Shown: positions 3,971-12,079 of the stretch, one piece after another
Numbering within the stretch: position 1 is the stretch's first letter
Layout: each line of letters opens with the position of its first letter
Source: a virus
DNA: 30,757 nucleotides
Reading direction: 5' to 3' (one strand)
UHGV virus genome: UHGV-0360189
The notes under the pieces: model-generated
Told to the model about the DNA's origin: nothing
Seen by the model: only the letters and a program-made list of their open reading frames with translations
Databases searched by the model: none
Translations under genes and position numbers: made by a program

Positions 3971-4294
3971 ATGAAGATGCCAGAAAAACATGACCTGTTA
4001 GCCGCCATTCTCGCGGCAAAGGAACAAGGCATCGGGGCAATCCTTGCGTTTGCAATGGCGTACCTTCGCGGCAGATATAATGGCGGTGCGTTTACAAAAA
4101 CAGTAATCGACGCAACGATGTGCGCCATTATCGCCTGGTTCATTCGTGACCTTCTCGACTTCGCCGGACTAAGTAGCAATCTCGCTTATATAACGAGCGT
4201 GTTCATCGGCTACATCGGTACTGACTCGATTGGTTCGCTTATCAAACGCTTCGCTGCTAAAAAAGCCGGAGTAGAAGATGGTGGAAATCAATAA
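3971..4294 (+). CDS. S: Holin S (S107 antiholin / S105 holin, dual start)
   Basis: ORF track 3971..4294, 107 aa, [34 protein letters not shown]... matches lambda S; Met1-Lys2-Met3 dual-start motif and three hydrophobic segments. Confidence 0.92.
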
Positions 4295-4754
4295 TCAACG
4301 TAAGGCGTTCCTCGATATGCTGGCGTGGTCAGAGGGAACTGATAACGGACGGCAGAAAACCAGAAATCATGGTTATGACGTCATTGTAGGCGGAGAGCTA
4401 TTCACTGATTACTCCGATCACCCTCGCAAACTTGTCACGCTAAACCCCAAACTCAAATCAACAGCAGCCGGACGTTACCAGCTTCTTTCACGTTGGTGGG
4501 ATGCCTACCGCAAGCAACTTGGCCTGAAAGACTTCTCTCCCAAAAGCCAGGACGCAGTGGCATTGCAGCAGATTAAAGAGCGTGGCGCTTTACCGATGAT
4601 TGATCGCGGTGATATTCGTCAGGCTATCGACCGTTGCAGCAATATCTGGGCTTCACTGCCGGGCGCTGGTTATGGTCAGTTCGAGCATAAGGCTGACAGC
4701 CTGATTGCAAAATTCAAAGAAGCGGGCGGAACGGTCAGAGAGATTGAGGTATGA
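4278..4754 (+). CDS. R: Endolysin R (lytic transglycosylase)
   Basis: ORF track 4278..4754, 158 aa, [39 protein letters not shown]... matches lambda R; overlaps the S 3' end by 17 nt. Confidence 0.92.
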
Positions 4755-5209
4755 GCAGAGTAACCGCGATTATCCCCGCTCTGATTATCTGCATCATCGT
4801 CTGCCTGTCATGGGCTGTTAATCATTACCGTGATAACGCAATCGCCTACAAAGAGCAGCGCGATAACAAGGCCAGTGAACTGGAGAAGGCGAACGCCACC
4901 ATCGCTGACATGCGGAAGCGTCAACGTGATGTAGCAGAACTCGACGCAAGATACACAAAGGAGCTTGCTGATGCTAACGCGACTATCGAAAGTCTCCGTG
5001 CTGATGTTTCTGCTGGGCGTAAGCGCCTGCAAGTCGCCGCCACCTGTGCAAAGTCAACGACCGGAGCCAGCGGCATGGGCGATGGAGAAAGCCCAGGACT
5101 TACAGCAGATGCTGAACTCAATTATTACCGTCTCCGAAGTGGAATCGACAAGATAACCGCGCAGGTTAACTACCTGCAGGAATACATCAGGACGCAATGC
5201 CTGAAATAA
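4751..5209 (+). CDS. Rz: Rz i-spanin (inner-membrane spanin subunit)
   Basis: ORF track 4751..5209, 152 aa; N-terminal transmembrane segment ([18 protein letters not shown]) followed by a coiled-coil-like periplasmic domain; ATGA overlap with R. Diverged from lambda Rz in the C-terminal half. Confidence 0.85.
4965..5156 (+). CDS. Rz1: Rz1 o-spanin (outer-membrane lipoprotein), embedded in Rz in the +1 frame
   Basis: ORF track 4965..5156, 63 aa; lipoprotein signal with lipobox-like VSAC followed by a proline-rich mature region ([13 protein letters not shown]); lies wholly inside Rz, as in lambda. Confidence 0.72.
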
Positions 5210-5241
5210 TTTTTTTGCAAATCACAAAGTCCATTTAATGA

Positions 5242-5263
5242 GCCTCGCGATGCGGGGCTTTTT
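5242..5263 (+). terminator. Candidate intrinsic terminator 1 downstream of Rz
   Basis: Imperfect hairpin GCCTCGC-gat-GCGGGGC (5242-5258) followed by a short T-run (CTTTTT). Free energy not computed. Confidence 0.4.
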
Positions 5264-5270
5264 GCAATAA

Positions 5271-5295
5271 ATGCGTACCGCAACGCATGTTTTTT
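5271..5295 (+). terminator. Candidate intrinsic terminator 2 downstream of Rz
   Basis: Perfect 6-bp stem ATGCGT/ACGCAT (5271-5276 / 5283-5288) with loop ACCGCA, then G and TTTTTT (5290-5295). Confidence 0.5.
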
Positions 5296-5410
5296 ACACC
5301 GAACCTGCCCCTTTGGAATGGGCCTTTGAGGATACCAGTTAGTGCTGGCGAGCCTCGGCGGGCTGGTTTCCTGTGCGGCAAAGGTTCATTTCAAAGAGTA
5401 GGTACACGCT

Positions 5411-5908
5411 ATGAAATCATTAACCCTCTTCAATCAACCAATTCGTATCGGTGAAGATGGCATGATCTGCCTCACTGATATGTGGAAAGCCAGTGGTAAA
5501 AGTGAATCTGAATCGCCTTACCACTACCTGCGAAACAAGCAGACCAAAGAGTTCTTAGCCGAGCTGGAGAAAAACCACGAATCTGTGGTTTTTACTGAGC
5601 GCGGTGTACACGGTGGAACATATGGCGGGAAGTTTGTTGCTTACGATTATGCGGCTTGGTTAAACCCCGGGTTCAAGTACGCGGCCTATAAAGTCCTCGA
5701 TGACTACTTCACCGGAGAACTTCAGCATCGCAACAGCTTAAGTGCGCAGCTCAACATGAAATGTCATGAGTTTGACCAGAAGAAAGACATGGCGAGCTTC
5801 TGCGGACAAGGGCTGGCAGCATGGCGCTATACGAAGCCAGTGTTGGTCGCTGAGATTAACTCCCTGGCTAACCAGCTGCAGATTACGATCCCCGGGCTTC
5901 CGGGATGA
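5411..5908 (+). CDS. KilA-N-like domain protein (accessory, function unknown)
   Basis: ORF track 5411..5908, 165 aa. The N-terminal region (IRIGEDGMICLTDMWKASGKSESESPYHYLRNKQTKEFLAELEK) resembles the KilA-N/APSES-type DNA-binding domain as I recall it; not verified by profile search. Sits where lambda has bor. Confidence 0.45.
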   Translation: MKSLTLFNQPIRIGEDGMICLTDMWKASGKSESESPYHYLRNKQTKEFLAELEKNHESVVFTERGVHGGTYGGKFVAYDYAAWLNPGFKYAAYKVLDDYFTGELQHRNSLSAQLNMKCHEFDQKKDMASFCGQGLAAWRYTKPVLVAEINSLANQLQITIPGLPG

Positions 5909-6174
5909 GTGATCGTGTTATTGAATGCGCCTCCAGAGCGGGGCGCGACTTCTCAGAGTTCATGAAAGGCGAGAAGGGCATGATGGAAGCATTGGCCTCG
6001 GTGGATGAGTTTGGCGAGCAGCTGCGCCTCAACGGCTGTGTCAATCATCACTTTGTTAGCTACATGATGCGGAACTCGATCATGCAGGCATTCATGGACA
6101 TGGCAAAAGCCGAGAGGAAAGAAGAGCGCCGGCGTAAGCGAGCGGAAGCAAAAGCAAAAGCAAAAGTGAAGTAG
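5905..6174 (+). CDS. Hypothetical small protein with basic Lys/Ala-rich C-terminal tail
   Basis: ORF track 5905..6174, 89 aa; start overlaps the upstream stop (ATGA), suggesting translational coupling with the KilA-N-like gene; C-terminus KAERKEERRRKRAEAKAKAKVK. No family recognised. Confidence 0.5.
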   Translation: MSDRVIECASRAGRDFSEFMKGEKGMMEALASVDEFGEQLRLNGCVNHHFVSYMMRNSIMQAFMDMAKAERKEERRRKRAEAKAKAKVK

Positions 6175-6398
6175 CCATTACAAAGCCCATTTACGGGTGG
6201 GCTTGATAATGAAACCGGAATTTATTCTGGGCCACCAGTTAACGGCAGTACCACGAAACAACCCAAGCCAGTAAGTGGGGAAATAACACCGGCAGCCACT
6301 GAAAGATGAACCTCCTGCCTTATGGCAAAAAAGATTCTTTGTGGTGGCGGACTGATGGAAAGACATCCTAATTTCAGCCAAACATTGAAGGAGTTGTT

Positions 6399-6470
6399 AT
6401 GTCAGCAGAAGGTTTCAATAACCCATCAAAATTCCGGGATGAGTGGGATAGCAGCGTAAAGAGTAAGTGA
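6399..6470 (+). CDS. Candidate small ORF, 23 codons (MSAEGFNNPSKFRDEWDSSVKSK)
   Basis: Not in the ORF track (too short). ATG 6399 preceded by GAAGGAG (6387-6393) with a 5-nt spacer; stop TGA 6468-6470; bracketed by the two hairpin-containing repeats. Coding status unproven. Confidence 0.3.
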   Translation: MSAEGFNNPSKFRDEWDSSVKSK

Positions 6471-6762
6471 TGCCATCACAAAAGCCATTCCCTACAGAGT
6501 GGCTTTGATAATGGCTTATACCCTACACGGGATAACTTAACTGATATCCCTTTTAAAGGATAAAGGTATTCAAGCCTGACACATCATGCGCTGTATCGTC
6601 GCCGTATTCCCGTATTAACAGAGACCGTAGCCCGACGGGGAACTCCTTCTGCGCGAGTGTGCGGGAATAATCAAAAACGATGCACACCGGGGTTACCGGG
6701 TACACATATTTCATCATGCCAGCGAGTCCGGTTCTGGCACGGAAGAAACCGGACGTTATGAT

Positions 6763-7188
6763 TTAGTGCGGAAATATTTGTGTAGTGTTCTGAATGTTCT
6801 CAGTAAAGAGTAATGAATTATCAAAGGTATAGTAATACCTTTTGTTTTCGTGGATATTTGTAATCCATCTGAAAACCCCTGCTGTAGCAAGATTTTTCCT
6901 GTATTCGTAAAATGATAACTCTCCTGATTTGAATCCTTTTAAGGTGGCTTCTATAAGGCATTTATTTTTTGAAAATCTTACATTTACAACCTTACCCTGT
7001 CCTTTTATTAAAACCGTATTATCGTTTTCAAGAACAAGATGAATATTCTCTGTGGCTAAATAGTAAATGTAATGTGAGACATTGTGACGTTTTAGTTCAG
7101 AATAAAACCAGTGATAGTTTAAATTATTTCGCACTTTATCGAATATTTGTTTAAAAATGGCAACCTGAGCCATTGTAGTACCTTCCAT
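6763..7188 (-). CDS. AT-rich accessory protein, YdfO/YbcV-like (DUF1398-type as I recall), function unknown
   Basis: ORF track 6763..7188 (-), 141 aa. A more likely start is the second ATG (about 7173, [11 protein letters not shown]...) preceded by GGAAGG. The gene is markedly AT-rich by eye compared with the flanking lambda-like genes. Family assignment is from memory of E. coli cryptic-prophage genes next to the nu1 homologue, not from a search. Confidence 0.6.
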
Positions 7189-7230
7189 GTGATATGAGGG
7201 GGCGTAGTCTGCACGATTATCTAAATTGCT

Positions 7231-7464
7231 TCAATCTGGTCTAACCTGTTTTCTGAGCAATTCAGTAATGTCACTCTTTTCTTTGTTTGCTTCAGGCGAA
7301 ACTCTTTTTTCTGAGCACAGTCTCCGGCGGCAGGCTTCAATGACCCAGGCTGAGAAATTCCCGGACCCTTTTTGAACAAGAGCGATGTTAATTTGTTCAA
7401 TCATTTGGTTAGGAAAGCGGATGTTGCGGGTTGTTGTTCTGCGGGTTCTGTTCTTCGTTGACAT
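7231..7464 (-). CDS. Small ribbon-helix-helix-type DNA-binding protein, YnfO/YlcI-like
   Basis: ORF track 7231..7464 (-), 77 aa, MSTKNRTRRTTTRNIRFPNQMIEQINIALVQKGSGNFSAWVIEACRRRL... Basic N-terminus then a pattern compatible with an RHH (Arc/MetJ/CopG-like) fold; lies immediately left of cos and upstream, on the same strand, of the AT-rich gene. Confidence 0.6.
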   Translation of the reverse strand: MSTKNRTRRTTTRNIRFPNQMIEQINIALVQKGSGNFSAWVIEACRRRLCSEKRVSPEANKEKSDITELLRKQVRPD

Positions 7465-7663
7465 GAGGTTGCCCTGTATTCAGTGTCGATGATTTGTATT
7501 GTCTGAAGTTGTTTTTACGTTAAGTTGATGCAGATCAATTAATACGATACCCGCGTCATAATTGATTATTTGACGTGGTTTGATGGCGTAGATGCACGTT
7601 GTGACATGCAGATGATAATCATTATCATTTTGCGGGTCCTTTCCGGCGATCCGACAGGTTACG

Positions 7664-7675
7664 GGGCGGCGACCT
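7664..7675. other. cosN: 12-nt cohesive-end sequence GGGCGGCGACCT at the terminase nicking site
   Basis: Exact match to the lambda cohesive end; flanking sequence on both sides (..CCGACAGGTTACG | GGGCGGCGACCTCGCGGGTTTTCGCTATTTATGAAAATTTTCC..) matches the joined lambda right and left ends. Confidence 0.88.
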
Positions 7676-7852
7676 CGCGGGTTTTCGCTATTTATGAAAA
7701 TTTTCCGGTTTAAGGTGTTTCCGTTCTTCTTCGTCGTAACTTAATGTTTTTATTTAAAATACCCCCTGAAAAGAAAGGAAACGACAGGTGCTGAAAGCGA
7801 GCTTTTTGGCCTCTGTCGTTTCCTTTCTCTGTTTTTGTCCGTGGAATGAGCA
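7676..7852 (+). promoter_or_regulatory. cosB region (terminase small-subunit binding elements upstream of nu1)
   Basis: Inverted pair AGAAAGGAAACGACAG (7772-7787) and CTGTCGTTTCCTTTCT (7813-7828), resembling the lambda R3/R2 gpNu1-binding elements; A/T-rich segment between cosN and these elements consistent with an IHF site. Boundaries approximate. Confidence 0.6.
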
Positions 7853-8372
7853 ATGGAAGTCAACAAAAAGCAGCTGGCTGACATTTTCGGTGCGAGTATC
7901 CGTACCATTCAGAACTGGCAGGAACAGGGAATGCCCGTTCTGCGAGGCGGTGGCAAGGGTAATGAGGTGCTTTATGACTCTGCCGCCGTTATAAGATGGT
8001 ATGCCGAAAGGGATGCTGAAATTGAGAACGAAAAGCTGCGCCGGGAAGTTGAAGAACTGCGGCAGGCCAGCGAGACAGATCTCCAGCCAGGGACTATTGA
8101 GTACGAACGCCATCGACTTACGCGTGCGCAGGCCGACGCACAGGAGCTGAAAAATGCCAGAGACTCCGCTGAAGTGGTGGAAACCGCATTCTGTACTTTC
8201 GTGCTGTCGCGGATCGCAGGTGAAATTGCCAGTATTCTCGACGGGATCCCCCTGTCGGTGCAGCGGCGTTTTCCGGAACTGGAAAACCGACATGTTGATT
8301 TCCTGAAACGGGATATCATCAAAGCCATGAACAAAGCAGCCGCGCTGGATGAACTGATACCGGGGTTGCTGA

Positions 8373-8398
<26 letters not shown>
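7853..8398 (+). CDS. nu1: Terminase small subunit Nu1
   Basis: ORF track 7853..8398, 181 aa, MEVNKKQLADIFGASIRTIQNWQEQGMPV... matches lambda gpNu1 (winged-HTH N-terminus). Confidence 0.93.

Positions 8399-12079
<3,681 letters not shown>

Follow-up and report, generated by a model that had tools for sequence, protein, structure and literature searches.

Two members of a conserved RNA hairpin family bracket a present/absent block in the late operon of a lambdoid prophage

The virus genome UHGV-0360189, analysed here over its full length of 30,757 nucleotides (the window), is a lambdoid prophage, and the 521 bp of it that were tested are identical to E. coli strain OkiPb01701 in an E. coli genome search. 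In a non-essential stretch of its late operon, with the lysis genes on one side and the packaging genes on the other, lie two imperfect direct repeats, which were pointed out before in an annotation made from the sequence alone (the first-pass annotation). These repeats are two members, type A and type B, of a hairpin family confined to one syntenic position in lambdoid phages, and the comparison with relatives shows that the hairpin structure is kept by selection on the sense-strand RNA. The hairpins and the segments adjoining them are:

6175-6211, plus strand: hairpin A (type A), CCATTACAAAGCCCATTTACGGGTGGGCTTGATAATG, recognised by its fold, covariance-model match and pair counts; lower stem 6176-6180/6207-6211, internal loop CA 6181-6182 / GA 6205-6206, upper stem 6183-6191/6196-6204, loop 6192-6195
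6212-6237, plus strand: variable linker from hairpin A to the core, delimited by sequence comparison; breakpoints at 6224 and 6228-6233
6238-6367, plus strand: conserved non-coding core of about 130 nt (homology block about 6232-6367), nearly invariant among 55 unique variants
6368-6471, plus strand: variable cassette slot, delimited by comparison with relatives
6399-6470, plus strand: open reading frame (ORF) of 23 codons, MSAEGFNNPSKFRDEWDSSVKSK, read from the sequence and ending 3 nt before hairpin B
6472-6515 (family core 6474-6513), plus strand: hairpin B (type B), recognised by its fold, covariance-model match and pair counts; lower stem GCCAU 6472-6476 / AUGGC 6511-6515, upper stem 6481-6490/6497-6506, loop 6491-6496
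6516-6564, plus strand: companion segment "hp3", fold z = -2.1 (plus) and -2.8 (minus), found in 106 phage records
6212-6513, no strand assigned: 302-bp present/absent block (linker, core, small ORF and hairpin B), absent from the phages PhiR49_1 (L001) and Stx2 phage 1717 (L002)

Both repeats are real: a lead CCAT(T/C)ACAAA and a tail GATAATG (6205-6211 and 6507-6513) can be read in each of them, and copy B, CCATCACAAAAGCCATTCCCTACAGAGTGGCTTTGATAATG, lies at 6473-6513. Copy A of the first-pass annotation, given as 6171-6210, took in the TAG stop of the upstream ORF and stopped 1 nt short of the end at 6211, and the distance, estimated at about 255 bp, measures 261 bp between the copies and 298 bp from start to start. 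Both copies also fold around the 7-bp stems proposed earlier, but the stems are longer, and a lower stem and an internal loop had been missed. In hairpin A, a 2x2 internal loop (CA/GA) separates a lower stem of 5 bp (CAUUA/UAAUG) from an upper stem of 9 bp, and the minimum free energy is -17.0 kcal/mol, with z = -3.6 relative to dinucleotide shuffles; in hairpin B, the internal loop lies between 5 bp of lower stem (GCCAU/AUGGC) and 10 bp of upper stem, and the energy reaches -22.4 kcal/mol (z = -4.9). The apical loops comprise 4-6 nt. That the repeat unit might be a chance motif, which had been left as a possibility, is excluded by 100 shuffles, in which no match to the lead-stem-tail pattern is expected, and by a covariance model built from relatives, which matches only two places in the 30.7-kb window, namely A (56.4 bits, E = 3.7e-13) and B (54.8 bits, E = 1.1e-12), the next match having E = 0.34. 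A weak match on the minus strand inside the DUF1398 gene (6816-6865, 12.6 bits, E = 0.63), consisting of GATTACAAA...TTGATAATT with a 32-nt interior, is probably due to chance.

For comparison, we assembled 126 related loci from 120 IMG/VR contigs, collected with the sequence just 3' of hairpin B as anchor, and six phage records. They contain 187 hairpin copies in 38 unique variants, which fall into three main sequence types (A, B and B'); a locus holds one copy or two, and L015 has two further weak ones (range 1-3). Type B', GCAGAGGCCATTCAATGAGTGGTCTCGACAATGG, is the form present in HK97, HK620 and Chlobot, and L015 contributed a fourth type (C), CAGGCAUUC AUU GAGUGCCUG, which has the same architecture with a new stem and was the only additional divergent type among the fetched loci. 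The alignment of the 38 variants is free of gaps outside the loop and gives the consensus structure (((((..(((((((((........)))))))))..))))). Standard pairs are formed in 97.4% of the stem cells, compared to 88.7% in shuffles, none of 500 of which reached the observed value, and to at most 50% when the partner was slid. Compensatory changes on both sides occur at 5 of the 14 pairs and in 63 cells (10-31 G-C/A-U, 11-30 C-G/G-C, 16-25 U-A/C-G, 8-33 A-U/G-C and 5-36 A-U/G-C), and the last of these (A-U 27, G-C 6) belongs to the lower stem. No variation is seen at C6, A7 and G34 of the internal loop, and the loop columns are variable. The earlier suggestion that conserved stems with divergent loops reflect selection on structure is supported by the degree of pairing, the compensatory changes and the variable loops.

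The variation is also asymmetric between the strands. Within a type it consists almost entirely of C-to-U changes in the 5' arm (GCCCA to GCCUA, GCUCA or GUCCA), while the 3' arm is constant, and the stem cells departing from Watson-Crick pairing comprise 57 G-U pairs and 14 mismatches on the plus strand, as against 8 G-U pairs and 63 mismatches on the minus strand. Where a lysis-gene homologue can be recognised (100 loci), every copy (152 of 152) lies downstream of the lysis gene and points the same way. At least ten different sense-strand ORFs have a copy behind their stop codon, at a distance of 1-15 nt and often directly at stop plus 1 nt. Taken together, the strand-asymmetric G-U pairs and the co-orientation with the lysis gene indicate that the functional form is most likely the sense-strand RNA of the late operon.

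Phages carrying the element include HK97, HK022, HK620, CUS-3, epsilon34 and Shiga toxin (Stx) phages, whereas the K-12 prophages DLP12 and Qin are without the hairpin, their homology to the window starting only at 6587 and 6725. A scan of species-representative genomes with hp3 as anchor retrieved only Escherichia, Shimwellia and seemingly misbinned contigs of metagenome-assembled genomes, and no new hairpin types. Near-identical Escherichia-phage sequence in metagenome-assembled genomes labelled as Cellvibrionaceae, Nanosynbacter, Bacillota and Collinsella (L131, L132, L133, L138 and L139) is probably binning contamination. An Rfam search of 4000-9000 and 6150-6600 at permissive thresholds yielded nothing for the hairpins, no hit attaining its gathering threshold and the best overlaps being chance-level miRNA models; none of the GenBank and RefSeq records inspected has a regulatory or RNA feature at the hairpins, and a literature search found no relevant paper on the hairpin sequence. 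The family is hence new in lying outside Rfam and in having no feature in the records inspected, and it is known in kind, as intercistronic hairpins and module linkers are.

How the window came to hold two copies can be read from relatives with one. Parts of the region are matched by 277 phage records and by 2612 of 5426 complete E. coli genomes, with the full arrangement in 34 genomes. In PhiR49_1 and Stx2 phage 1717, a single hairpin directly follows the hkbL-like gene, and window segments 5900-6211 and 6472-6800 both align to these loci, overlapping at locus positions 1763-1800. As this single hairpin aligns to both A and B, window 6212-6513 is a present/absent block, and the window owes its second hairpin to a cassette (core, 23-codon ORF and hairpin B) that it has in addition to what the single-hairpin phages possess. 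The repeats had been discussed as duplicated ends of a small inserted unit; the block does come and go as a unit, but its ends are neither target-site duplications nor transposon ends. In HK97, HK620 and Chlobot, hairpin A is followed by the segment 6212-6367 and then by a type B' hairpin.

The edges of homology cluster at those of the hairpins. Homology blocks begin at the 5' edge of A (6169-6176) or of B (6471-6475) and end at 6211/6224, 6367/6372 and 6564, the last being the end of hp3 and a sharp mosaic boundary at which 74 blocks end; a further peak of breakpoints lies at 6232. An independent search of E. coli genomes gave the same edges (query positions 70-77, 132-134, 372 and 465). A further joint lies upstream of hairpin B, where 28 type B copies stand 5 nt behind four different canonical terminators (5-7 U, different stems): in L015 (1856-1900) and 27 other loci these terminators are joined to the hairpin via the same TTTTT(T)ATTGC junction. 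As four different terminators share one junction, the mosaic joint lies in or at the terminator T-run.

The first-pass annotation recognised the interval bracketed by the repeats but missed two of its contents, the core and the 23-codon ORF. The linker 6212-6237 is swapped for about 90 nt in HK620-type relatives. The left neighbours of the core vary (hairpin A, the end of a Rha-type gene and others), and its right neighbours are five cassette classes. The core was examined as a protein gene in all six frames, including a 62-aa minus-strand ORF annotated in Chlobot, and rejected: the ratio of synonymous to non-synonymous changes is about 9:42 in every frame, some copies have 1-nt indels, and the 62-aa ORF matches no Pfam or PHROG family, so that the core is regarded as non-coding. 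Its folding is not unusual (z = 0.0 on the plus and -1.1 on the minus strand), the alifold consensus is weak, and its variation is too small for covariation. At 6262-6297 it shows a partial, sub-threshold match to the Rfam model Proteo-phage-1 (RF03044; 19.8 bits vs 42), which covers only the unpaired ends of the model (17 of the 18 nt of GAAAaAACaCCGGCAGCC, a stretch at the 3' end of the model) and lacks both model hairpins.

In the cassette slot, a strong Shine-Dalgarno sequence, GAAGGAG (6387-6393), stands 5 nt before the 23-codon ORF, which has no Pfam or PHROG family and no PGAP annotation and is a candidate micro-protein cassette. Among the relatives, the slot is empty and followed by type B' in 42 loci; 13 loci have the small-ORF cassette of 106 nt, 4 have one of about 245 nt, 6 have an int-alpA RNA plus ORF and 16 have a Gp49-family gene, and all cassette-bearing loci end in a type B hairpin. 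In mEpX1, a 372-nt gene replaces window 6373-6471 and is again followed by hairpin B. The int-alpA RNAs (RF02996) score above the gathering threshold (42-45 bits; L038 2722-2784, L066 6828-6890, L122 9155-9217 and L082 11252-11314) and lie directly downstream of the core, in the slot of the window's 23-codon ORF; their 3' part CACCGCCAGCCACTGAA is similar to CACCGGCAGCCACTGAA of the core. Beyond the slot and hairpin B, the conserved hp3 consists of a 6-bp stem (GGGAUA/UAUCCC) followed by UUUU and always comes after hairpin B or B', the hairpin that borders the structural or accessory genes. In HK97 and HK620 it lies 15 nt 5' of the start codon of an hkbM-like gene, and in the window it adjoins convergent minus-strand genes. 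The AUG within the GAUAAUG tail would open a peptide of 21 aa behind A and one of 9 aa behind B; both were dismissed, as neither has a Shine-Dalgarno sequence and the 21-aa peptide is not conserved, being reduced to 3 codons in HK620-type relatives.

The genes around the element are:

4278-4754: lysozyme gene
4751-5209: Rz-type gene
5411-5908: KilA-N/ORF11CD3 gene
5905-6174, plus strand: hkbL-like late-operon ORF of 89 aa (HK620 hkbL-like, phrog_875), from the ORF list, with a PHROG match of 3.7e-54 and a PGAP coding sequence
6763-7188, minus strand: DUF1398 gene
7231-7464, minus strand: DUF3950 gene
7853-8398: Nu1-type small terminase gene, followed by the large terminase gene

The TAG stop of the hkbL-like ORF (6172-6174) lies 1 nt 5' of hairpin A, and about 590 bp after this gene are without any RefSeq annotation. 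Near its 3' end (6139-6165) the ORF contains an in-frame AAAAGC hexamer repeat encoding a Lys-Ala tail, with one copy in HK97-type relatives, two in L014, three in the window and four in L022. On the minus strand, a 54-aa ORF at 6553-6717 is annotated as hypothetical in the PhiR49_1 and Chlobot records, has no PGAP call and no Pfam or PHROG family, and ends with its stop codon within the U-run of hp3.

The explanation that we consider somewhat better than evenly probable is that of an intercistronic RNA hairpin, serving stability or processing, which doubles as shared homology for cassette exchange. Each copy closes a unit, hairpin A after the hkbL-like gene and hairpin B after the cassette of core and 23-codon ORF. 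In the Q-antiterminated late transcript, the hairpin could act as a stable intercistronic element, i.e., as a protective 3' hairpin, as an RNase III-type processing site, or as both. T7 RNase III signals of the R1.1 type, which have about two turns of coaxial helix and an internal loop close to where they are cut, are cleaved in such a manner that a protective 3' hairpin is left on the upstream mRNA. As DNA, the 40-90 bp common to the copies (hairpin plus hp3) would offer homology by which Red/RecET-type or host recombinases may add, delete or swap cassettes, and such shared homology would explain why two copies bracket the block in this prophage.

Several points weigh against this explanation. 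The putative role in processing or stability is read from conservation alone, and the IMG/VR sample is biased by its anchor just 3' of the hairpin. The variation represents few lineages (types A, B, B' and C), and the compensatory cells therefore few independent events. Positions 4-37 (in CAUCA variants), 5-36 and the C-A at 6-35 would pair better on the minus strand, where 6-35 and, in CAUCA, 4-37 form G-U. Breakpoints at hairpin edges could also result from selection for intact genes after illegitimate recombination. With regard to RNase III, hairpin A next to the core amounts to about 16 bp-equivalents, which is short for this enzyme; types B and B', whose internal loop is 2x2 or 4x4, reach 19-23. 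A literature search on RNase III processing of lambdoid late mRNA found nothing relevant.

Terminators come to mind as an alternative, and the hairpins do share one feature with them, a stable, G+C-containing hairpin just 3' of a gene. The earlier remark that a U-tract is missing is essentially right: a terminator scan with a threshold of at least 5 T in 8 flagged neither hairpin on either strand, and the tails following the upper stem (UUGAUAAU in A, UUUGAUAAU in B and CGACAAUG in B') lack, in the window copies, the about five or more U within 8-9 nt after the stem that are typical. Their scores of 2.1-2.8 remain below the 4.2-4.8 of neighbouring canonical terminators, and type B', the commonest type (41 of 187 copies), has a single U in the 8 nt after the stem. 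Nor is the tail single-stranded and thereby free for the weak rU:dA hybrid, as UAAUG or CAAUG pairs with the 5' lead in the covarying lower stem. A score of the d'Aubenton-Carafa type is negative for the hairpins on both strands, but also for the window's own post-Rz terminator; it is poorly calibrated, so that the U counts were relied on instead. The GenBank record of mEpX1 marks a rho-independent terminator after Rz and none at the hairpins. Classical terminators are hence unlikely. What could still be envisaged are intrinsic terminators that are weak or need a factor such as NusA and may work in both directions, which end independently expressed "morons" and are read through by the Q-modified polymerase in lytic growth. 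This would fit the position directly after stop codons and, in the window, between convergent genes, the three U after the stem of type B on the plus strand and the borderline UUUUGUGAU behind hairpin B on the minus strand, and it has a parallel in terminators noted inside the late operons of P22-like phages, whose role is not known (PMC8022706). However, the 28 copies directly behind a canonical terminator belong to cassettes that are thus supplied with one, A-C mismatches disrupt the minus-strand hairpin of the commonest variants, and the cassettes come without a promoter: the scan found no promoter-like site within 6171-6564. Together with the scan result, the low tail scores and the paired tail, this makes such a role improbable, if still worth considering. 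In a manual reading, the tail itself was also tried as a promoter and discarded, TTGATA as -35 having a spacer of only 14 nt to the closest -10-like hexamer and GATAAT as -10 having no -35.

The other alternatives place the function in the DNA. The element could have no RNA function at all and persist as conserved "linker" DNA that provides recombination homology, its palindromy being incidental or inherited, as suggested by breakpoints clustering at its edges, by the few near-clonal sequence types across phages of Escherichia, Salmonella and Shigella, and by the adjoining core, which is equally conserved without detectable structure. Yet without structural selection one would not expect compensatory double changes between types, variation limited to G-U on one of the strands, or C-to-U changes restricted to the 5' arm opposite an unchanging 3' arm, and loops vary where stems do not, which leaves this option with a small probability. 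We regard as far more improbable that the hairpins act as single-stranded DNA, be it as subterminal hairpins of a small mobile element, such as an IS200/IS605-derived palindrome-associated transposable element (PATE), a repetitive extragenic palindrome (REP)-like element or a miniature inverted-repeat transposable element (MITE), or as attC-like sites. Hairpins on the same strand do bracket a unit of about 300 bp that some relatives have and others lack, the combination of one cassette with one hairpin in each unit recalls integron cassettes, and G-T wobbles are tolerated in folded single-stranded DNA as well. Elements of the PATE, REP or MITE kind would, however, be expected at unrelated sites along with a cognate transposase or REP-associated transposase (RAYT), whereas all copies here are syntenic and none was found outside the syntenic site in the 30.7-kb window and about 970 kb of related contigs. 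Furthermore, target-site duplications are lacking, single hairpins occur as well, and the ORFs at 4500-8500, the part of the window read for this purpose, showed no transposase or integrase. An integron is likewise not indicated, since the lysis-to-terminase region holds no integrase, RYYYAAC/GTTRRRY core sites are not matched, and neither the lead CATTAC nor the tail GATAATG fits the attC R-box GTTRRRY. The first-pass annotation had, finally, listed protein-binding sites; these could be double-stranded palindromes bound by a dimeric phage or host protein in the manner of an operator. The outer arms are imperfect inverted repeats (CCATTAC.../...GATAATGG) and the internal-loop bases are invariant, but the half-site distance varies by type (36, 37 or 40 nt) and the arms covary for complementarity instead of being kept as one half-site sequence, both of which point to a folded strand rather than to a duplex operator. 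As the conservation is moreover strand-asymmetric and no constant regulator gene lies nearby, only a very slim chance is left for this proposal.

Several known systems resemble the hairpin family in part. In T4-type phages, the shuffling of modules is driven by repeated promoter-early stem-loop (PeSL) cassettes (Arbiol et al., 2010; PMC2839356), and the likeness is evident in short repeated stem-loop motifs between small non-essential genes, in copies that bracket indels or replacements, and in shuffling explained by recombination between the copies. A PeSL, however, joins a strong sigma-70 promoter to an effective terminator, and many copies are spread over hyperplastic regions, whereas the family described here has neither promoter nor U-tract and is found in 1-3 copies per genome at one syntenic site of the late operon. 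Since of the PeSL features only the repeat flanking indels was found, and not the sigma-70 promoter, the efficient terminator or the many dispersed copies, the family is PeSL-like in its evolution and not a PeSL. Boundaries of lambdoid morons and their intrinsic terminators (Hendrix/Casjens; PMC8022706, PMC2629481) likewise place a hairpin directly 3' of accessory genes of the late operon where flux of gene content is high; here, by contrast, the cassettes have no promoter of their own, and the hairpin has no U-tract, a paired tail and often a separate canonical terminator in front of it. With respect to architecture, the RNase III sites of T7 (R1.1), lambda sib and the N leader are also intercistronic hairpins of a long polycistronic phage mRNA, in which a conserved internal loop separates a lower stem from an upper one of about 10 bp, and types B and B' resemble the T7 signals in this geometry and in their total length of 19-23 bp-equivalents; hairpin A next to the core is smaller, at about 16 bp-equivalents, and there is no sequence similarity to the known sites.

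On the DNA level, traces of homologous recombination have been described at lambdoid mosaic borders (PMC3945230, PMC2327257). The linkers of the Susskind-Botstein model are comparable as short conserved sequences between exchangeable modules that are common to phages with unrelated head and packaging modules, and the present element is indeed shared by the P22-like HK620 and CUS-3, HK97-like, lambda-like and Stx phages. It differs in being structured with covariation, which the general model does not require. The Rfam families int-alpA (RF02996) and Proteo-phage-1 (RF03044) also belong to accessory regions of enterobacterial prophages, but the hairpins of the window match neither.

A bolder version of the favoured reading, which we put forward only tentatively and think rather doubtful, would be that the bipartite hairpin (invariant CA/GA internal loop, conserved CAUUC...GAGUG apex), the core and hp3 form a dedicated platform for the exchange and expression of cassettes. 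Its RNA, as a sequence-specific signal for processing or for binding a protein, would insulate each cassette in the late mRNA, and its DNA would be a portable joint by which accessory genes and structural modules are traded among P22-like, HK97-like, lambda-like and Stx phages, as a counterpart of the T4 PeSLs or attC without a dedicated recombinase.

The usual accounts of lambdoid mosaicism invoke either illegitimate recombination, with selection acting afterwards, or relaxed homologous recombination at short homologies that are not specified further. The hairpin element is a concrete and widespread joint, with matches in 2612 of 5426 complete E. coli genomes and in at least 106 phage records. 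It is structured and under selection at the RNA level, and it is a demonstrable breakpoint for accessory cassettes between the lysis module and three unrelated types of packaging/head modules. The annotation of prophages would gain from a definition of the element, since RefSeq at present calls about 590 bp "intergenic", and it offers an experimentally tractable site for studies on cassette exchange and on the processing of a late mRNA of more than 20 kb. The element is not a new class of system, and it is best seen as an example of how lambda-like phages shuffle small genes.

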